In this document: in pieces, positions 8,766-52,841 of the stretch
Layout of the letters: each line of letters opens with the position of its first letter
Numbering within the stretch: the stretch's first letter is position 1
Source of the DNA: a virus
Direction: 5' to 3' (one strand)
Length of the DNA stretch: 64,000 bases
IMG/VR virus record: IMGVR_UViG_3300028840_005911
Span: 96,001 to 160,000 of that record
The notes under the pieces: generated by a model
Database searches by the model: none
Told to the model about the DNA's origin: nothing
The model's input: the letters and a program-made list of their open reading frames with translations, nothing else
Position numbers and translations under genes: made by a program

Positions 8766-8841
8766 GGATCGGTAGTTCAGCTGGTAGAACGCTGGTCTGT
8801 TAAACCAGAAGTCCGAGGTTCAAGTCCTCGCCGATCCGCCA
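8766..8841 (+). tRNA. trnN: tRNA-Asn (GTT), CCA encoded
   Basis: acceptor GGATCGG/CCGATCC, D stem GTTC/GAAC, anticodon arm CTGGT-CTGTTAA-ACCAG, T arm CGAGG-TTCAAGT-CCTCG, 76 nt. Confidence 0.97.
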
Positions 8842-11318: not shown

Positions 11319-12770
11319 TCAGTGGATGGTGGCTCCAAGTTTTGTCAGGTGACGCCTTGGGGGCCAGACCACTCCGTGGCGAGGGACTTCGAGACGATTG
11401 AGAAGCTCAACCCACCCTTTCCGAGACCGTTCGACTCTGTTCTCAAGTATGATAGGGCTCCATTCCTGGCTCATCACGCCCTTACTAACGCAGTACAGTT
11501 TTGGCCACGGTACCGTGGCGTATGCCCTGGCCCTCTCATTTGGAGTTGACTCGTCCGTGAGAATCACGACCCCTGTGAGGTCCGGGAGGCCTTCCTTGAA
11601 GTCCTCCGCAGTCTTGATGCCGTGCCCCCTGAGATATTCAACGGTGTCGTCGTAGTTGTAGCCTGTATACGGGAGACCGACACTCCTGGTGAGTGCTGCC
11701 AGGGCCTCCGTCCAGGTACGGAAACTCTCCGAGAAATTATTTCCCCTCCGCATGACCACCTTGTACCTGCCGCCCTCCAGGTTATTTTGGAAGAGGTGGT
11801 AGACCGTGTAATCTTGCGACCTTGCCATATCGATCCCTTTAAGAGAATCCTTCTCGAAGAACACTGCAACTTTCGAAAGGTCCGAGGCGTTGGGCTTAGT
11901 CGCTTCCTGGAAATCGACCTCCAGCTTAGCCCCTCTGTTCCTGAGCCTGAAGAGGAACTCAGAGGTGTTGCTTTCCGGGTCATCGTACTCCACCTGAGTG
12001 AAAACCAGAGGAGTGTGAAGGAGGCTGAACAGGGTCTCCCAAGCTATCCTCCAGTTTGGTACAGTCGTGCAGCATCCGGCTCCTCCTTCTGTCCCGTCGA
12101 CCACTATCACGTGCTTCGCCCAATGCCATATTACATCTACTCGTGCGTTGTCGGAGAGGATGTAGATACTGTAACCTTCCTTGTGTGCCCGAGCTATTGC
12201 CGAGGTGTCGTATCTCCTTTTGCCGAATTGCTCCACGAACACAGCAACCTTGCTGAGGTCTGGTTTGTTACCGCCCCAGAACGTCCCCTCTGGCCTCTCC
12301 GGAGTTGACAACACACCCTGTATCTCACGCTTGAAAGAGTTCTTGGTGAGGTCCCATGTCGCCTGGTACATAGCAGTGTCATCCCTCTCTGAGCTGTCTT
12401 GCTCTGGGAACTCGGCGCGGACCTTCTCTGCAGCCATCTCGTCGTTGAAGATGGCAATCTTGTTCCTAGTATTTTTGTCCCTCACGACGACCCAAGGCCA
12501 CTTGCCGTGGAGGGCGAGAACGACTGGGACGATATCACTGTTGATGTGGAACCAGCGCCCCTCTGACCCGGGAGGGAACTCATACCCGACGAGCTCGAAG
12601 AAGTACAGATCCTTTGACCACCTGAGGTGCTTGAGAACTATAGTCTTCATACACTCGAACCGTTCCCTGTCGTCGTACCTCCACTTGTCTATCTTGATGC
12701 CGCCGCCGAGCATCAAGATGTTGCCGAGCTCAGAGCTCTTGATCTTGCGGACCTTTCTCATAATCTTCAT
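11319..12770 (-). CDS. hypothetical protein, paralogue family A (IKSSEL N-domain)
   Basis: VRKIKSSEL...LRWSKDLY...WPWVVV...IFND; internal DLSKVAVF repeats. Confidence 0.75.
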   Translation of the reverse strand: MKIMRKVRKIKSSELGNILMLGGGIKIDKWRYDDRERFECMKTIVLKHLRWSKDLYFFELVGYEFPPGSEGRWFHINSDIVPVVLALHGKWPWVVVRDKNTRNKIAIFNDEMAAEKVRAEFPEQDSSERDDTAMYQATWDLTKNSFKREIQGVLSTPERPEGTFWGGNKPDLSKVAVFVEQFGKRRYDTSAIARAHKEGYSIYILSDNARVDVIWHWAKHVIVVDGTEGGAGCCTTVPNWRIAWETLFSLLHTPLVFTQVEYDDPESNTSEFLFRLRNRGAKLEVDFQEATKPNASDLSKVAVFFEKDSLKGIDMARSQDYTVYHLFQNNLEGGRYKVVMRRGNNFSESFRTWTEALAALTRSVGLPYTGYNYDDTVEYLRGHGIKTAEDFKEGLPDLTGVVILTDESTPNERARAYATVPWPKLYCVSKGVMSQEWSPIILENRVERSRKGWVELLNRLEVPRHGVVWPPRRHLTKLGATIH

Positions 12771-13080
12771 CGCTTCCCTCCTTTATTGGTTCGTACCTGT
12801 GGACTTGCTCAAGATACCTGATGGCATCCTTCAGGACCAAAACCGAGTCCCGTAGTTCAAGAAGTTGGACCCTCATTATGCAGATATCTTGGTGGAGATG
12901 CTCGGCCACCCTCCTTTCAGGAGTGTTGTCGCTCCCGTCCGATAGAAGATCGTAGGTCTTCCTGATAGCATTGGCGGCATTGAGCATGTCATCTCCAGCA
13001 CTCAGGAGGTGAGAGTCAGCCTCACGTGTCCGCGCTGTCGCCTTACCGAGATTCTTCCAGTTCATCTTCATTCTTGCCAT
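12730..13080 (-). CDS. helical hypothetical protein
   Basis: MARMKMNWKNLGK...; start moved to 13080. Confidence 0.55.
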   Translation of the reverse strand: MARMKMNWKNLGKATARTREADSHLLSAGDDMLNAANAIRKTYDLLSDGSDNTPERRVAEHLHQDICIMRVQLLELRDSVLVLKDAIRYLEQVHRYEPIKEGSDEDYEKGPQDQEL

Positions 13081-13484
13081 ATCCATATCCCTTGTTGCCC
13101 CTTGGCGGGTATTGGTTCGTCGAACTTCTTGATGTCCTCGAGGAACAGACCGTAGATCTTGTACCCGAGGAAAGCAGGTGGAGTAGCGCAGCTGCACAGA
13201 GCTCGAGACGAGTCTCCGTCATTCAACTCACGGTGGGCCACTACCTCTGCGGTAGCCAGCACACATCCGAATGGGAGACGCTCCGGTATATATTTGAACA
13301 GCGTCACCGTATCGACGTAATTCCCAAGCGCCATAAGGTAGTGCTGTGAGTACGACTTAGCCGCGTGTATTGCTATCTGCTGTCCTAAGAGGGATTTGAA
13401 CCTGTCATGCTTCCTCGTCTCTATCGTCTTCAGCCCGTCTGCTATCAACGACGCCCAGGGTTGCCAGATCGTGATTGCTCTCAT
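13068..13484 (-). CDS. ASCH domain protein
   Basis: AITIWQPWASLIADGLKTIETR ... PAKGQQGIW. Confidence 0.9.
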   Translation of the reverse strand: MRAITIWQPWASLIADGLKTIETRKHDRFKSLLGQQIAIHAAKSYSQHYLMALGNYVDTVTLFKYIPERLPFGCVLATAEVVAHRELNDGDSSRALCSCATPPAFLGYKIYGLFLEDIKKFDEPIPAKGQQGIWIWQE

Positions 13485-13520
13485 CGCGTGTCTCCTTCTG
13501 GGTAAGCTTTTCCTTCACTG

Positions 13521-13530
13521 TTCTTATACC
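13521..13530 (-). promoter_or_regulatory. GGTATAAGAA promoter motif
   Basis: exact motif between a terminator and the ASCH gene start. Confidence 0.65.
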
Positions 13531-13558
13531 AGAAGATGAGAGGATTCTTCGAAGGAGT

Positions 13559-13590
13559 AAAAAAGAGTGGTGGGGTAGGATCACCACTCT
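13559..13590 (-). terminator. intrinsic terminator
   Basis: AGAGTGGTG-ATCCTACCC-CACCACTCT-TTTTT. Confidence 0.8.
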
Positions 13591-13764
13591 ATGTGACTCA
13601 GCAGGGATAATCCCCTGCTGGAAACATGTCCGGCTTTCACCCCGGCACTTCCCTACCCAGTAGAGTTGCGAGTCACCAGCATCTCTACCCCAGGTGAGTT
13701 ATCCATGCTCACCCGGAAAAGTGGTCGTTGGCGAGTGACGTCCGGGCAGGACGTATTCCTCGCC
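13559..13764 (-). ncRNA. candidate structured non-coding RNA with pseudoknots
   Basis: five hairpins plus three long-range complementarities (GTGACTC/GAGTCAC, GGGTAGG/CCTACCC, ACCACTTT/AGAGTGGT) filling an intergenic gap. Confidence 0.65.
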
Positions 13765-14052
13765 TCACTGTTCTTGTACCACATCCACGGTCGGATTTTC
13801 CACCTTCATGATGGGCCGGTCACCTTCCTTCCAGACCGGGATGGGGATGTCCTCTTTGACGGCGCACTTGTAACAGATGCGCTCTTCCTTGACGACCTCA
13901 GTCCCAACTCCGCCACGGTCTATTCTGCGGCTCTTTCCCCATCCGTCGGGAGTGAACCTCTCGGGGTATTCTTTCTCCCGGGTCTCGGAAACGATCTTGA
14001 TTTCCCGCTGCCCGAGCTCCGAATGCTTGCCGCACCTATCACACTTGTACAT
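13765..14052 (-). CDS. small Zn-binding protein
   Basis: MYKCDRCG ... ICYKC. Confidence 0.7.
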   Translation of the reverse strand: MYKCDRCGKHSELGQREIKIVSETREKEYPERFTPDGWGKSRRIDRGGVGTEVVKEERICYKCAVKEDIPIPVWKEGDRPIMKVENPTVDVVQEQ

Positions 14053-14065
14053 CTCACCTCCTAGA

Positions 14066-16345
14066 CTAGGTATTGCCCTTTTCGATGACCACCTTCTTCA
14101 ACCTCACCGAGAACATCAGCCTCTTCAGCTTGTCCAACTCGACATCTACCTGGTGACCGGTCATGGTGCCAAAGCGCTTGAAGGGGTATCTGGAACTCCT
14201 GAACTTGAAGGCCGCTCCGTCGCGGCAGAACGTGAACTTGAGCCTCAGTTCTTGCTCATCAAGGACTGGCTCTATGTGCACCTCGTCGTACTCCGTACCC
14301 ACGCGATCCTCGATGTGATCGAAGACGTTCCTTGAGAGGGATGGGTACTGGGTATCTTCTTGGGTCTCCTTGATGATCCTCCTCAGTTCCATTTCCGCAT
14401 CGACGGTGAGAACGTATTCTCCCTCTACCATGGACAGCTCTTCAGGGAGAAGCCTCCCAGATACGCTGCCAATGAGATCGTCATTGCGGTAGAGGCGCAG
14501 ATTGGCGAAAGCCTTTCCGTGTCTGGTGCCCTTGGTGATGAACTCCGGCCTGATGGAGCCGTAGGACTTGTCCAAGTTGTTTTCCCACGTCACGCTGACA
14601 TCTGACCAGATATGATCTTTCTCAGGAAGCGGGAAGTACTTCTCTCCTCTCATCCACACCGGCACAGATAACCTTTTGGCGACATCCATCATCGCTTTGT
14701 AGATGACCGAGGAGTCGTGGAACTTTGACCAGTACTCATCGACATCCTGGAAGGAAACATCGAAGTCCCTGCGGCAAACCAGCTTGTTGTCCTTGTGAAG
14801 GCCAATTGTCACGCGCGCCGTCACACCAACGAAGTCAACGGAGTTCCCGCTGACCGACGCTCCATCAAATTCGAGGCTCCGGCTAGACGCCCACTCGACC
14901 ACCTCGTTGGCAAGGTCCTCTGCGAAACTGTTCGTACCGCCCCTCTTCCTACCCAGCCACACCTTCTGAGCTGCGGCGCAGGCCATCTTCTGTATCTGCT
15001 CGTAAACGTCCCCGGCACCGAGAAGGTGCCTGTTGTCGAATTCCAACCTCATGGTTCCGCAGGGTCTGGCGTTCGACAACAGCCTGACATCGACTATCGT
15101 GGTGCCGTTCACAGGGGAGTTCAAACAGGTTTCCGCGTAGAAGGAATCGAAGTCGTCCCCTTCTGAGAAATCGAGCTCTGGATCTTCCGGGTACTCTGGT
15201 AGATCGGTCATGCTCATGACCTCTCTACTGGTGAATATCTTGGTCAGCTTACGATCCTTGACGGCGCAATCGGACATCTCCAGTGGCCCTCCACCTTGCT
15301 TCTTCCAGTACCTCTCCGCAGCTGCGCACATCATCTTGAAAGCGAAGTCCACCAGATCGTTGAAATCCTCCACGGACTCCGGTATCTCGCTGTTGTGGAT
15401 GGGGAGTCTGACCTCCCCTACCCTATTGTCCTTGTTGGCATGCGCGGGTGAACCGTACAGATAAGCCGCAGCGAATATACCACCTTTGCCCGGAACTAGA
15501 CGGGTCATCATGAATGAGGAGAACTCGTCCCCAGGACTTTTGTCCCAGTAATCGACACTGAGGTCACAGATGGGGTCCTCCTCGAATGACTCGTCCCCTC
15601 TCCAATGGGATTTCCACTGGGATTTGCGCAGCGTCTTTACGTGACCGTGCTCCTTGAACAGCTCCGCCACACCTTCATCGGTGAAGAACGTGGGCAGCTT
15701 GGCAGGGGGCGCTTCTACCCGCCTATCGACGACAGGTTTACCGAGCTTATTGACCTCCTTCCTGAGCTTCTTGAGATTGGAATCGAGGTTGTCTTTCCGT
15801 ACAACAGGCTCCGGATGTCTGTAGGTGTACTCAAGAGGTTTGATTCCAGCCGGGAGGTGCTTCAGATCCTTGAGGGAGTTTTGGACAATAGACTTGGTGG
15901 TTTCGTCAAATTGTCCAACGACTCCTTTGGTTCCTTCTTCGATGCCGGCGGTTACAGTAGCGTACATGCAGTACATCTCCGCGAGCTCGGCATCGTTCAT
16001 CACCGAAACCCTCTTGTCATGGCGGAAGGAGAAGACTTCGACAATGGGGTACTTGCTTGGCGTAATGTACCCATACCCATGGCCCAATCTTGGAACGGTC
16101 AGGAGTCTTTTTTCATCCCCATCCCGGTCCCGGGGGTACGAGACATCCTCGAATCTATCATCCCACTCCATGACGTACAGCTTCTTTTGCCACCTGAGGA
16201 AGCTCAGTATGGCCGTCACACCCCTTTCCACCCGTTTCCAGCCGTGACGTGTGAAATCCTCCTTTGGGTAGGTTCCCGGGTCAATATTGAGCTTGCAGAT
16301 CAGGAAATCTTTGAGCTCGGAGCTCTTTATCTCACGAACCTTCAT
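14066..16345 (-). CDS. 759-aa hypothetical protein, paralogue family A
   Basis: VREIKSSEL...LRWQKKLY...YPIVEV...VMND; repeated KM.CAAA...W units. Confidence 0.8.
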   Translation of the reverse strand: MKVREIKSSELKDFLICKLNIDPGTYPKEDFTRHGWKRVERGVTAILSFLRWQKKLYVMEWDDRFEDVSYPRDRDGDEKRLLTVPRLGHGYGYITPSKYPIVEVFSFRHDKRVSVMNDAELAEMYCMYATVTAGIEEGTKGVVGQFDETTKSIVQNSLKDLKHLPAGIKPLEYTYRHPEPVVRKDNLDSNLKKLRKEVNKLGKPVVDRRVEAPPAKLPTFFTDEGVAELFKEHGHVKTLRKSQWKSHWRGDESFEEDPICDLSVDYWDKSPGDEFSSFMMTRLVPGKGGIFAAAYLYGSPAHANKDNRVGEVRLPIHNSEIPESVEDFNDLVDFAFKMMCAAAERYWKKQGGGPLEMSDCAVKDRKLTKIFTSREVMSMTDLPEYPEDPELDFSEGDDFDSFYAETCLNSPVNGTTIVDVRLLSNARPCGTMRLEFDNRHLLGAGDVYEQIQKMACAAAQKVWLGRKRGGTNSFAEDLANEVVEWASSRSLEFDGASVSGNSVDFVGVTARVTIGLHKDNKLVCRRDFDVSFQDVDEYWSKFHDSSVIYKAMMDVAKRLSVPVWMRGEKYFPLPEKDHIWSDVSVTWENNLDKSYGSIRPEFITKGTRHGKAFANLRLYRNDDLIGSVSGRLLPEELSMVEGEYVLTVDAEMELRRIIKETQEDTQYPSLSRNVFDHIEDRVGTEYDEVHIEPVLDEQELRLKFTFCRDGAAFKFRSSRYPFKRFGTMTGHQVDVELDKLKRLMFSVRLKKVVIEKGNT

Positions 16346-16358
16346 GGCTGGCCCTCCT

Positions 16359-17300
16359 TCACATGCTGTTGAACTTCTTCATGTCGTCGGGGTTGAACTT
16401 CACTTCTACGCCAGGCTGCGGAAAATTCTGCAAGGCGGGTCCGTCGGACCGGTCCCGTCCGAAGAACTTTGAAGGTAGCGCGTACGTCTCGAGGGCCAGC
16501 TTATTGAGGAGGTCCTGGAATTCCTGAAAAGTCTCAGGCTTCTCTTCCATTTCGATACACCCTATGTCCTTACTGTACCGGATGTCGGAGATGCGCCCAC
16601 TTTCGGGTTCAACTATCTCGAACGTGAAGGCTCCCTCACGTATCTCAGACCTCTTGGTGACGTACAGCCTTATTTCGGAGTTGCGAGCCACAACGTAGGT
16701 TTGGCCGGCTCCAGCCCCTCCAGTTATCTTCACGAGCTTGCCAACGTGCTCGTCCCCCTTCCACTCACCCTTGTCCCTCACGATATTCCCGACCGAGTCG
16801 TAGATCCCGGACTGTTCCTTCTCAATGACGCGCACTCCTCCGCTGAGGGTGAACTGCGGCTCTGCCTTGTCGTCCTCCTTGAAATGGCTATTGATGCTCT
16901 CGATCACATCAGAATTAGCCCTCATGACCGTGTCGATTGGCTCCCGGTCGTTGAAGATTGTGAACCCGCCGCCCGGGGAAAGAACCTCAACAAGCGGCCA
17001 ATCCCCGATGAGGTGGCCCTGTACCAGGACTGAGTTGTGGGCGAAGCCCTGGCCCCAAACCCAGCAGTTCTCCTCGCCTTTGAGAAGACGGAGGGGCGAC
17101 ACCAGATACAGCTCCTTCTGCCACTTGAGGAACTTCTTGATCTCCAAGACGAGGCGCTTGACGCACTTGTCTTCCTTGCCGAGCCGGCTCTTCGGGACCT
17201 TGAGGCTCTCCTCGTAGGTTCTCGCGAAGATCTTACCTTTACCACGAAGCACGCTCTCGAGCTCAGAGATCTTGATCTTCCTAATCCTTACGTCACTCAT
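16359..17300 (-). CDS. hypothetical protein, paralogue family A
   Basis: IRKIKISEL...LKWQKELY...WPLVEV...IFND; start MSDVR at 17300 (ATGA overlap). Confidence 0.75.
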   Translation of the reverse strand: MSDVRIRKIKISELESVLRGKGKIFARTYEESLKVPKSRLGKEDKCVKRLVLEIKKFLKWQKELYLVSPLRLLKGEENCWVWGQGFAHNSVLVQGHLIGDWPLVEVLSPGGGFTIFNDREPIDTVMRANSDVIESINSHFKEDDKAEPQFTLSGGVRVIEKEQSGIYDSVGNIVRDKGEWKGDEHVGKLVKITGGAGAGQTYVVARNSEIRLYVTKRSEIREGAFTFEIVEPESGRISDIRYSKDIGCIEMEEKPETFQEFQDLLNKLALETYALPSKFFGRDRSDGPALQNFPQPGVEVKFNPDDMKKFNSM

Positions 17301-17596
17301 GGTTTCATTCCCTCCTTGTCCGGCAGCTTGTCGAACTTCTCGTGGTATTCTACAAACAAATCGGACAGGATTGCCATCTTTCTTATACAGCTCCATTGCT
17401 CGTCGGTGAAAAGCCGTCTGAAGTGTTCAGCATCCTCTACGGTGCCGACCATCTCATCGACCTGGTCCTCGAGCTCCACGAAAGCGTAGTAGAATACGTT
17501 CTTGATGTGCTCGTGGCTCGCCCTGTCCGATAGCAGCTCCAGTTCCTTCTTCTTGTACTCCTCATACTCTTCCGGTGAGTATACCTTAATCGCCAT
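17297..17596 (-). CDS. hypothetical protein
   Basis: 99-aa ORF in the coupled leftward run. Confidence 0.65.
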   Translation of the reverse strand: MAIKVYSPEEYEEYKKKELELLSDRASHEHIKNVFYYAFVELEDQVDEMVGTVEDAEHFRRLFTDEQWSCIRKMAILSDLFVEYHEKFDKLPDKEGMKP

Positions 17597-35375: not shown

Positions 35376-36355
35376 CTACAGGGCCAGCTGATCCGAGGCA
35401 TCCAAGCCAACCAGGGCAAGGGCGCTGACTGCGACGGGCAGAGCGCGCTCGAACTGAATGCCGACGTTCTCCTGGATGATCGTACCCTGGGAGTCGGTGG
35501 CGATGGTGTGGTTCGGGATGTAGCAGGACTCCATGTACACCGCTCCGACCGTGTCCTCGTTGGAGTCACGGAAGTAGGCCATCATCCCAATCGGCTGATT
35601 GAAGAGATCAGAGGCCAGATTGATGTACATGTTCTCGTAGCCCGGCGGGATCTTCACGTTGTGCGCGTTGGCCACGGTTAGAGCCCCGAGGTTGTTCGCC
35701 CCGATGACACTCGGCACCAGAGTGGGCGGGAACAGGTCCTGGTAGTATGCATACAGGACGCGGAGCAGAGAGGGGCCGTGGTAGAGCACGCGGCTCAGAC
35801 CAACCTGGCCCACCGTCCGACCACTGATGAAGAAGGACCGTTCGGACCCGATCTCAAAGATCCGGTTGAACTGCCGGGTGTGACTGAGATTGAAGTTCTG
35901 CACAATCCCGATGGGGAAGACGATGTCGTCACCTGCTCCCTCGGCCAGGCCGGCTCCCACGAACGTCTGGTTTCCGATGTTGGCTAGACGGGGCGGACCT
36001 GCGGCGAGCAAGGTGAAGTTCCCCGAAAGAAATTGCAACCGTTACGAGGGCTGTTTAGACCCTCCCAGGAGTTTCCTCCTGGTGTCGGACTATATCTTCT
36101 CCCCGAAGGGAGCCGGGCACTCGTGGGGCCGCTTATTGCTTACGCTGCTCACAGCCCTAGTCTCTGAACCTTCCGCAGTACTACGTGCGCTTCCTACGGC
36201 TTGGCTGCTGATTCCCACCACCTCAACGTGCTGAGGGTCCCAGCAATTCACCCGGTGCACCTGCATGATTACTCCTGCAGGGGGCCAAATTGACCGTCTA
36301 CCAACCCCGCTTGAACATAGTTCGTATACGGAGCCCACTGAGATAATCTAGCCAT
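35376..36355 (-). CDS. tail tube protein, two exons (36355-36293 + 36035-35376), 240 aa after splicing
   Basis: MARLSQWAPYTNYVQAGLVDG^QFLSGNFTLLAAGPPRL...; IG..QN, FEIGS.R, ESCYI...ENV.IQFER; downstream of the sheath gene. Confidence 0.8.
36036..36292 (-). ncRNA. group I self-splicing intron, 257 nt, no internal ORF
   Basis: P GAATTGCTGGGA (36238-36249), Q AATCAGCAG (36205-36213), R GTTCAGAGACTA (36158-36169), S AAGATATAGTCC (36087-36098); U at the 5' splice site, terminal G; in-frame exon joining. Confidence 0.93.
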
Positions 36356-50288: not shown

Positions 50289-51761
50289 CTACATTTGACC
50301 AGTCGGAGGCATCGGGGGAGCTGCAGCAGGAGCTCCGGCGGGAGCCGCCGCAGGTGCCGCACCGGCCGGAGGCATCGCAGGCGGTGCCATCGGAGGGGGT
50401 GCTGCTTGACCTGTAGCAGGCGGAGCGCCGGCGATCATGCTCTCCTTCTCTGCCTCTGACATCTGCTGGGACTCTCCTTCCGCCGCTGCGTCCGCGATGG
50501 CCTGTGCGGCAACCATCTCTTCGGGAGATGCCTCACCTGCCATACTGGCCTCTTCAGGGGTGAGATCCGCCCCTTCGGCCATCTTCACCAGGACCCCGAT
50601 CTTCTTCTTGATGTCGGGATCGGATGCAGCGAGCTTCTTGAGAAGTTCCCGTGCCGCTGAAATCTTCACACCTGCTTCCTGGGTGTTATCCAGCGACTCG
50701 TGAAGTGTCTTGTCATGGGTCTTGGACATGGCCGGCTCGGTGAGAACCTCTGCCAGCTGACCCTTGTTCTGCTGTTTGGCCTGGCCCTTGGTAGCGTCGA
50801 TGGCGGCATCGTTGCTACCGACCAGCTCACGGCCTCCACCGGCGCCTTCGGTCGGGGCTGCCTCACGAGGAGTCAGCTCACCAGCCTCGGAGCCCTGGGA
50901 CTGTGCCGGGGGGACGCCAGCCGGGGACTGAAGGTCCGGGGTGGTTCCGCCCTCGATGGCGTGTCCCTGTTGGCCGATCTTGGCCGGGTTGATGGCGTCT
51001 TCGGCCAGCTTGCCGAGCAGGGCCTCAGCAACGTTCTTGGGAACGTGGCCCTCTTCTGCCATCTTCTCGGTGAACTCGGAGGCCTTCTTCAGGGTCCCAC
51101 CACCTGCGGTCTCGGCACCAGGCTTCTTGGGGTCCTGAACAGCAGACACCTGCATGGCCTTCTGTGCCATCGCGGGGGTGATCTGCTTGCCTTCCTTCTC
51201 GAGGACCTCACGGACTTTGGCCTGGGCCTGCTTGAGGACATCCTCAGGCTGCTCGGCCATCATCATCTCTTTGTTGGTCTCGAGGGCGTTGGGGGCGTCG
51301 GCCGGGTTCGGCTTCTCCGACGGGGCGACCGCCTTCGGGCTCTGATGGCCCGGGGTGGCCTCGCCACTCTCGCCGGCGTCCAGGGAAGTCCCAGGGGCGT
51401 CGGCCTGTTCTGCCTTCATGGCAGTTCCGGGCCCGCCGGGCAGAGGCGCCCCGCTGTCCAGGGGCGGATTCTGAGGAATCTCGTCCTGGGCCGCCTTGAG
51501 GAGCTCCTCGTGGACGGTTGCGTACTCGGCCAGCTTCTCTTCGGCAGAGCGGTCGTCGATGACTTCGTGGAGATGGTCCGCCAGGTAGTCACATCCCTCG
51601 GCGATCTTCATGATCTCGTCGAGGTCGGCCTCCTGGGGATTCTCTTGAGCAGCGACTTTCTCCTCTGCCTCCCCGCCCGTTTCAGCCTCAGCTGTCTTGA
51701 GCATAGACTTCGAGCTGGCGAGGACCTGGCTGACCATTTCCATGATGGAAGTATTACTCAT
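50289..51761 (-). CDS. scaffold/core-like acidic Ala/Pro-rich protein
   Basis: at least 10 KxA motifs; low complexity. Confidence 0.55.
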   Translation of the reverse strand: MSNTSIMEMVSQVLASSKSMLKTAEAETGGEAEEKVAAQENPQEADLDEIMKIAEGCDYLADHLHEVIDDRSAEEKLAEYATVHEELLKAAQDEIPQNPPLDSGAPLPGGPGTAMKAEQADAPGTSLDAGESGEATPGHQSPKAVAPSEKPNPADAPNALETNKEMMMAEQPEDVLKQAQAKVREVLEKEGKQITPAMAQKAMQVSAVQDPKKPGAETAGGGTLKKASEFTEKMAEEGHVPKNVAEALLGKLAEDAINPAKIGQQGHAIEGGTTPDLQSPAGVPPAQSQGSEAGELTPREAAPTEGAGGGRELVGSNDAAIDATKGQAKQQNKGQLAEVLTEPAMSKTHDKTLHESLDNTQEAGVKISAARELLKKLAASDPDIKKKIGVLVKMAEGADLTPEEASMAGEASPEEMVAAQAIADAAAEGESQQMSEAEKESMIAGAPPATGQAAPPPMAPPAMPPAGAAPAAAPAGAPAAAPPMPPTGQM

Positions 51762-51773
51762 TTTTCGGTCTCC

Positions 51774-52037
51774 TTAGGTTCTCACCGGGGGCGGGGTAAC
51801 CGCTTTGCTCTGTGCAGCTGTACCTTGCGCCGCCCTTGGTGGTTGCGAGTTCACTACGGTGTAGTTTGTTGACTTCACTTCGGACTTCAAAGAGGTAGAG
51901 GGCTTCTGTCCGGTGGTGACGGTGGCCGGCTTCGTCGGAGAGGAAACAGCAATATTTGACGTAACAGGACCAATGGCCTTGTTCGCCGCTATCTTTGTCA
52001 GCTCATCCATGAACGAAGCCAGCATCACACTGTCCAT
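51774..52037 (-). CDS. small putative head cargo protein
   Basis: N-terminal FMDELTKIA. Confidence 0.6.
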   Translation of the reverse strand: MDSVMLASFMDELTKIAANKAIGPVTSNIAVSSPTKPATVTTGQKPSTSLKSEVKSTNYTVVNSQPPRAAQGTAAQSKAVTPPPVRT

Positions 52038-52055
52038 CTCTACCTCTCGGAGGTC

Positions 52056-52841
52056 TTACTCGGAGTCCTGCAGGAATCCATGCTCACCGAGCATTTCCCA
52101 GGCACGCTTCTCGACGGCCGCCGCCAGCTTCTCCTCGTCGGTGGCCTCGGTCTCGACGTCGTAGCCCGCCTCCTTCAGGATCGCGACGGCGCGCTCCTCA
52201 GCCAGCTTGTCCAGGAAGTCCACGGAACTCTTCTTCGACATGGCTGCGCCAGCACCCAGGCCAGCGAGACCAGCAGCACCGGCAGCCTCCGCCTTCGGGA
52301 CCTCTCCCAGGGCGCCCAGGATACGCTCCTTGGCGCTGCGGCCGACCTGACCACCGCTGCGGCCCGGCTTCGACCACTTTCCAGCGGCCTCGGCCACCGG
52401 GGCGTAGCGACCCTTGATGGCCTTGAGTACCTTGCCCCCCACCGCCTTGACTGCCTCGCCCTTGCCGGCGGACTTCTCGATGGTGGCCAGCTCGTCGACG
52501 TAGGCGTGGGCCATCTGGCGCCCGAGGAAGTCGGCCTGAGCCATCTTCTCTTCGACGCTCTCCTCTTCCTCCTTCTTCTCTTCCTTCTTCTCCTTGGGAG
52601 GCGCCTCCTCGGAGGTCTCCTGGGCGACCTTCACGATGGCGCTGTCATCGCCGAAGACGGCGTGGGCGACCTTCATGATGGTGTCATCGCTCAGGCTCTC
52701 GATGTCGTAGCCCTCTCCGGCCACGAGCTCGTTCAGAAGCTGGGCTTCCTCGAGGATCTGTGCCTCTGCCAGCTTCTCGGCATCCTCAGAGATGCCGATG
52801 TTCTTGTGAGTGTTGTACATCTCGGCAAGAAACGGATTCAT
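52056..52841 (-). CDS. scaffold/core-like protein
   Basis: helical, many KxA motifs, YVDELATIEKSAG. Confidence 0.55.
   Translation of the reverse strand: MNPFLAEMYNTHKNIGISEDAEKLAEAQILEEAQLLNELVAGEGYDIESLSDDTIMKVAHAVFGDDSAIVKVAQETSEEAPPKEKKEEKKEEEESVEEKMAQADFLGRQMAHAYVDELATIEKSAGKGEAVKAVGGKVLKAIKGRYAPVAEAAGKWSKPGRSGGQVGRSAKERILGALGEVPKAEAAGAAGLAGLGAGAAMSKKSSVDFLDKLAEERAVAILKEAGYDVETEATDEEKLAAAVEKRAWEMLGEHGFLQDSE

Follow-up and report, generated by a model that had tools for sequence, protein, structure and literature searches.

Some phage RNAs are made as stand-alone transcripts, with their own promoter and their own intrinsic terminator, as is the case for the pRNA of phi29, RNAs C and D of T4, and DicF. 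In transcriptional ON riboswitches, such as the pbuE adenine, ZTP and guanidine-I riboswitches, the 3' strand of helix P1 is also the 5' arm of the terminator, while the put RNA of phage HK022, ~70 nt in length, folds into two hairpins and alters the polymerase in such a way that downstream terminators are passed. Structured RNAs have also been gathered into catalogues by comparative genomics, where each entry is supported by several homologues.

Accessory cassettes without an assigned role are numerous in large uncultivated phages, and here we describe one from a phage genome deposited in IMG/VR. The explanation that we favour, and which we hold with about even confidence, is that positions 13766-13559 of the minus strand are a stand-alone early/accessory structured ncRNA gene, the product of which probably acts in trans. 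The stretch of DNA analysed (64 kb, referred to as the window) comprises bases 96001-160000 of a 192,446-bp virus record with direct terminal repeats, and the candidate RNA sits in it between a 95-aa ORF (14052-13765, minus strand) and a 138-aa ASCH-domain gene (13484-13068, minus strand). These genes belong to a leftward gene string, 18.7-11.3 kb, inside which the terminator of the RNA is the sole terminator. The coordinates of the features are collected in Table 1.

Table 1. Predicted features of the candidate RNA and its immediate neighbours, in window coordinates.
Feature	Coordinates	Strand	Details
Upstream 95-aa ORF	13765..14052	-	Two CxxC pairs; RNA promoter inside last 12 codons
Phage-type promoter of RNA (putative)	13765..13800	-	-35-like hexamer 13800-13795, 14-nt spacer, extended -10 13780-13771, TGA 13767-13765
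Predicted RNA, transcription unit without ORF	13559..13766	-	~205-208 nt; fold z -4.6; no Rfam family
P0, 5'-terminal two-part hairpin	13730..13764	-	Outer stem 6 bp, inner stem (13754-13738) 6 bp; probabilities 1.00 and 0.97
P2 hairpin	13690..13716	-	9 bp, 9-nt loop, one G-U; probability 1.00
P3 hairpin	13660..13688	-	6-7 bp, 17-nt loop; probability 0.44
P4	13622..13654	-	4-bp tip 13645-13630 (probability 0.98); irregular ~12-bp hairpin when extended
P5 hairpin	13599..13620	-	8 bp, 6-nt loop; probability 0.89
27-nt 3' segment	13573..13599	-	Three parts, complementary to 13676-13670, 13725-13718 and 13658-13651
Long-range helix H_a	13725-13718/13590-13583	-	8 bp, one G-U; 3' strand within terminator 5' arm
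Long-range helix H_b	13676-13670/13599-13593	-	7 bp
Long-range helix H_c	13658-13651/13580-13573	-	8 bp; 3' strand within terminator loop
Intrinsic terminator	13559..13590	-	9-bp stem 13590-13582/13572-13564, 9-nt loop, five U (13563-13559)
Second promoter-motif copy, ahead of ASCH gene	13515..13550	-	PWM 29.7 bits, rank 14
ASCH-domain gene, 138 aa	13068..13484	-	Pfam PF04266 and phrog_3193

The ASCH gene scores just over the cutoff of 21.2 bits against Pfam PF04266 (22.2 bits, E 2.5e-4) and matches phrog_3193 with an E-value of 4e-30. It is a neighbour of the RNA, and a functional link between the two is at most putative; no paper in the literature connects ASCH genes with a phage ncRNA. The RNA cassette and the ASCH gene are surrounded by large ORFs of 483, 759 and 345 aa (11319-17396, minus strand), and neither Pfam nor PHROG gave a match for the three ORFs of the neighbourhood that were scanned, those of 483, 759 and 155 aa. 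Elsewhere in the window there is a tRNA-Asn (GTT) gene (8766-8841, plus strand), convergent with the leftward gene string that carries the RNA, and a full-length Rfam group I intron match of 66 bits (36065-36313, minus strand). When the genome was compared by tblastn with that of a 192-kb relative, G003, none of the crude ORFs in a block of 43 kb (G000 80.8-123.8 kb, window positions -15200 to 27800) had a match, and outside this block 83 of the 247 crude ORFs did. Judged from such sequence comparison, the RNA is within a hypervariable early/accessory block that is rich in promoter-terminator cassettes.

The initial annotation had described the gap between the two genes as fully structured, and a script check placed every word of its hairpins at the minus-strand coordinates that it gave. 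All three of the long-range complements that it listed are also present, although the third, H_c, is 8 bp in length and thus one longer than was counted, and two of the three do overlap the terminator, H_a in the 5' arm and H_c in the loop. The minimum free energy (MFE) of a 216-nt stretch spanning the RNA is -94.1 kcal/mol, with a z-score of -4.6, and 0/200 dinucleotide shuffles were as good; the extension of P4 is seen in this MFE structure. The 143-nt core (13725-13583) by itself gives a z-score of -4.5, and the terminator has a pairing probability of 0.95 in the full-length ensemble and an energy of ~-13 kcal/mol as an isolated hairpin. On a grid of 1850 windows, covering both strands of the whole genome, the GC-corrected energy was lower in just four, placing the RNA about fifth, a comparison that slightly favours the RNA stretch, as its borders were chosen and those of the grid were not. 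The plus strand folds about equally well (z -5.7) because the stems are almost pure Watson-Crick, and the orientation is therefore read from the U-tract, from the promoter and from a modest asymmetry in energy and G-U pairs. Specifically, the minus-strand fold has an advantage of 3.7 kcal/mol and contains six G-U pairs, compared with three on the plus strand, and a terminator with a 9-bp stem and U-tract is found on the minus strand only. A single-sequence fold, whatever its z-score, is not proof of selected structure.

Upstream of the RNA is a copy of a recurrent promoter motif (GAAAAT, 14 nt, GGTAYAAGAA, 3 nt, TGA), of which there are ~20 in the genome, mostly on the plus strand at 80-95 kb. 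Using a PWM trained on 12 other promoters of the genome, with both copies at the locus (13800-13765 and 13550-13515) excluded, the RNA promoter scored 23.7 bits and ranked 19 of ~385,000 genome positions, where noise falls below ~7 bits. Its -10 block has a C where the consensus has T, a variant seen in other members of the promoter family too. Shine-Dalgarno-led ORFs begin 18-72 nt after the training promoters, whereas the RNA promoter leads to a terminator, at +174..+203, with no Shine-Dalgarno-led ORF before +281. Within the unit 13766-13559 there is no ORF of at least 20 aa and no Shine-Dalgarno-led start, and the start of the sole short frame is sequestered in P2. Thus, with a promoter of its own and no credible ORF, 13766-13559 of the minus strand reads as a separate promoter-RNA-terminator cassette. 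The class of this promoter is assigned from its sequence and position only, and transcription is predicted to start at ~13766, two bases ahead of P0, given the usual spacing from the -10 element. The 17 bases that lead up to the stop codon of the 95-aa ORF reappear directly past the terminator (17/17 allowing Y), and the Shine-Dalgarno site and ATG of the ASCH gene are found ~30 nt downstream of the second promoter copy.

The same promoter motif was also found in G003, which has 67% TerL identity with the phage, and a promoter class whose -35 element is unusual may thus be common to the whole clade. The word common to the two phages consists of a -35-like GAAAAT, 14 nt, an extended -10 of GGTATAAGAA, 3 nt and TGA. 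A second promoter-to-terminator unit of ~205 nt is present ~6.9 kb ahead of the window start (G000:C1:89045-89265, plus strand); it likewise has no Shine-Dalgarno-led ORF, folds with an MFE of -98.5 kcal/mol and contains a tract with a G at every fourth base. ORF-less promoter-to-terminator units are therefore not unique in this phage. There is no likeness between the two units, and the period-4 G pattern is absent from the RNA 13766-13559.

We infer the transcription, stability and mode of action of the RNA, and propose the following. Transcription would start from the copy of the recurrent phage promoter motif inside the end of the 95-aa ORF, and the nascent chain would form a protective 5' hairpin (P0), then a compact multi-hairpin core (P2-P5) and finally the intrinsic terminator. 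Since the next promoter adjoins the terminator, the RNA would be insulated as a cassette, in the manner of the small protein-gene cassettes found in the region. Transcripts of the upstream operon would also stop at this terminator, so that the same sequence may double as their 3' end. Once released, the RNA could have a trans-acting role in the infected cell, perhaps by binding a protein or as a decoy, in the course of host takeover or counter-defence. We infer this role purely from the position of the RNA, in an accessory block that is hypervariable and for the most part absent from relatives; a block that varies between related phages is the usual place of host-takeover and counter-defence functions.

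The RNA matches no known family. A scan of the 64-kb window with the covariance models of Rfam 15 gave no gathering-level match in 13400-13900, and at E<=10 nothing relevant was found with queries of 501 nt and 216 nt, the best sub-threshold matches, to unrelated families, being of 12-17 bits against thresholds of 40-100. This includes raiA, cobalamin, group II, HEARO, GOLLD and ROOL, none of which reached its gathering threshold. The likeness to raiA-motif RNA that the initial annotation proposed for a few words of the sequence is not borne out, as the 216-nt query had no raiA match even at E<=10. Membership of raiA, cobalamin or another Rfam family is ruled out, there being no relevant covariance-model match at E<=10.

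Homologues were sought by several routes. The region 13400-13900 had no blastn match in 50,697 phage records, and model R1, which as a positive control scored 276 bits on the phage's own genome, had none in 80 IMG/VR phage ASCH loci (at most 39% identity). Searches with TerL identified 5 relatives and then 354 related stretches, from a clade of 180-210 kb phages with 51-67% identity. The RNA was not found in the first five (G001-G005) by BLAST, nor with R1 in G001, G003, G004 and G005, four genomes from which the ASCH and 759-aa proteins are also absent, and R1 had no match in 50 further relative records (11 near complete), such that 54 related phage records, 12 of them near complete, gave none. 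Pattern scans of IMG/VR, for which two plain words and a 22-base descriptor with gaps were used, returned no match, and neither did a 27-mer in reference genomes; a 20-mer had two matches in metagenomes, each of them fortuitous, one being an unrelated iteron-like spacer and the other a bare hairpin. For the 95-aa and 759-aa neighbours there are no relatives, the former having been sought among 5.8 billion proteins, and an encoding-contig look-up returned nothing.

No paralogue of the RNA was found within its own genome. The 14-nt word at the junction of P3 and P4 (13660-13647, minus strand) does recur there, at G000:C1:52025-52038 (plus strand) and 58513-58500 (minus strand), and through one of these copies the RNA is perfectly complementary, over 14 nt, to the mRNA of a minus-strand gene at G000 51628-52129. 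Each of the two matches has an E-value of ~0.1 and may be chance, and the RNA segment involved also pairs with the terminator loop.

Taken against these searches, the claims of the initial annotation fared differently. That the locus holds an unannotated, structured minus-strand RNA with a terminator is borne out by an ORF-free unit with a strong fold, to which the promoter adds support. A new class of ncRNA is not established, as no collection searched, whether phage records, IMG/VR, metagenomes, reference genomes or the 54 related records, holds a homologue. The link to the ASCH gene is weakened by the stronger promoter that the ASCH gene has of its own and by the 80 loci that lack the RNA.

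The long-range helices raise the question of whether the RNA could instead control its own terminator. In nested folding of the full-length ensemble P3 (probability 0.44) and H_b (0.55) are rivals. When helices of at least 7 bp with at most one G-U were counted, three disjoint ones within one 27-nt stretch were improbable if that stretch was shuffled (P = 0.006), and the same clustering was found anywhere in 2.75% of whole-sequence shuffles that were scanned (P ~0.03). In folds of nascent prefixes the helices join the MFE structure successively, H_b by 13592, H_a by 13582 and H_c by 13573, with nascent-chain probabilities of 0.92 for H_a (at 13583) and 0.86 for H_c (at 13573). The terminator prevails in these predicted folds only after its 3' arm is present, the energies running -86.0, -88.6/-89.4 and -91.4 kcal/mol, and the full-length fold that contains it is just 2-5 kcal/mol better than terminator-free folds. 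The bases that H_a and H_c need are in part those of the terminator arm and loop, and the two helices dominate the nascent ensembles, so that the predicted anti-terminator and terminator pairings are mutually exclusive. The predicted fold of the 143-nt core is that of a closed multi-branch domain with its ends paired through H_a. Sequential formation of the long-range helices before the terminator is, in these models, suggestive and no more, and an index of terminator competition, for which a crude finder supplied only 5-8 other terminators, did not set that of the RNA apart as a clear outlier. Both the pseudoknot and the switch are unproven.

These predictions could be read as a cis-acting conditional terminator, namely a riboswitch-like or protein-dependent ON switch, and we consider this unlikely. 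An aptamer-like domain of 143 nt would then be closed by H_a as its P1, with the terminator 5' arm as the 3' strand of that helix. Locking of H_a, H_b and H_c by a ligand or protein would keep the terminator from forming, allowing transcripts from the RNA promoter and from the upstream operon to reach the ASCH operon. Such a layout may be compared with known ON switches that share the P1 3' strand with the terminator, as does the pbuE adenine riboswitch, and it is consistent with a multi-branch core with paired ends, with the prediction of H_a and then H_c ahead of the terminator 3' arm, with the small energy difference from terminator-free folds and with the clustering of three competing helices in 27 nt. 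However, a pattern picked by eye calls for a stronger statistic than a P of ~0.03, no clear outlier emerged when other terminators (8 cases only) were compared, and simultaneous formation of H_a and H_c looks strained with a linker of only 2 nt between them. Moreover, the terminator and the ASCH start are separated by the 29.7-bit promoter, and read-through would therefore contribute little control of ASCH. It also counts against a switch that no Rfam riboswitch or leader family matches, that 0/80 other phage ASCH loci carry the element and that the RNA, as a single sequence, offers no covariation.

Alternatively, there may be no dedicated RNA function, the sequence being the structured 3' end or terminator region of the upstream operon and a cassette boundary, with hairpins that either shield the mRNA or owe their presence to chance, and with a promoter copy that is weak or silent. 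As the sole terminator in the 18.7-11.3 kb string is that of the RNA, upstream transcripts must end there, and an operon end would be consistent with stems of almost exclusively Watson-Crick pairs, for which either strand folds as well as the other, with an orphan sequence that shows no sign of conservation in the collections searched, and with the C in place of the consensus T in the -10 block. However, that C is shared with other promoters of the family, and the promoter match is well over noise, with a correctly spaced -35-like hexamer and the downstream TGA present. In addition, a terminator needs far less than 205 nt and five or six stable hairpins, and the region is among the most structured of the genome. 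We regard this explanation as rather improbable.

It is decidedly unlikely, in our estimate, that the 143-nt core is the first-seen example of a new pseudoknotted RNA, either a sensor or ribozyme-like, in which successive long-range helices decide whether the terminator forms. If true, the hypervariable early region of the phage would carry an ON switch or an RNA that remodels itself, and, if the competing helices are functional, a new regulatory RNA architecture.

Finally, a highly improbable role is that of a very small peptide, from a 17-codon frame with its ATG in the P2 loop after a partial Shine-Dalgarno-like word at a short spacing resembling that of the 95-aa ORF, or of a palindromic DNA element for protein binding or recombination, where the flanking promoter copies (17/17 shared bases allowing Y) could serve cassette exchange, but the start and the word upstream of it are within a stem of pairing probability 1.00, no ORF of at least 20 aa is inside the unit, and the palindromes are all different and so make no repeated operator.

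Returning to the stand-alone ncRNA gene that we favour, its value at present, as a single orphan sequence, is that of a well-defined candidate and not of a discovery. Its promoter, 5' hairpin, core and terminator are each defined, as predictions, to within a few bases, and if expressed it would be a clean, small and tractable example of an early phage ncRNA.

How, then, does the candidate compare with the systems described at the outset? Like the entries of structured-RNA catalogues from viral metagenomes it is intergenic, structured and carried by a phage, but it has no homologues and therefore could be neither found nor supported by comparative catalogues. It is similar to raiA-motif RNA in length (~200 nt) and in having several hairpins, though it has no match to it at E<=10. 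With HK022 put it shares being a phage stem-loop RNA with a proposed action on termination; however, it has five to six hairpins and a terminator of its own, and nothing ties it to polymerase modification. The likeness to ON riboswitches consists of a closed multi-helix domain, a closing helix that overlaps the terminator and alternative folds a few kcal/mol apart. Here, by contrast, no riboswitch model is matched, there is a separate promoter ahead of the downstream gene, and with one sequence only a conserved ligand-pocket motif is not definable. To phi29 pRNA, T4 RNAs C and D and DicF there is no likeness in sequence or by covariance model, the Rfam set including pRNA and many sRNAs, but the RNA shares with them, as predicted from its sequence, an own promoter, a Rho-independent terminator, the lack of an ORF, a length of 100-200 nt, a location in an early/accessory region and terminal hairpins. 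We conclude that the RNA, while not shown to be a new class, is a credible orphan phage ncRNA gene of the same kind as these phage-encoded small RNAs.
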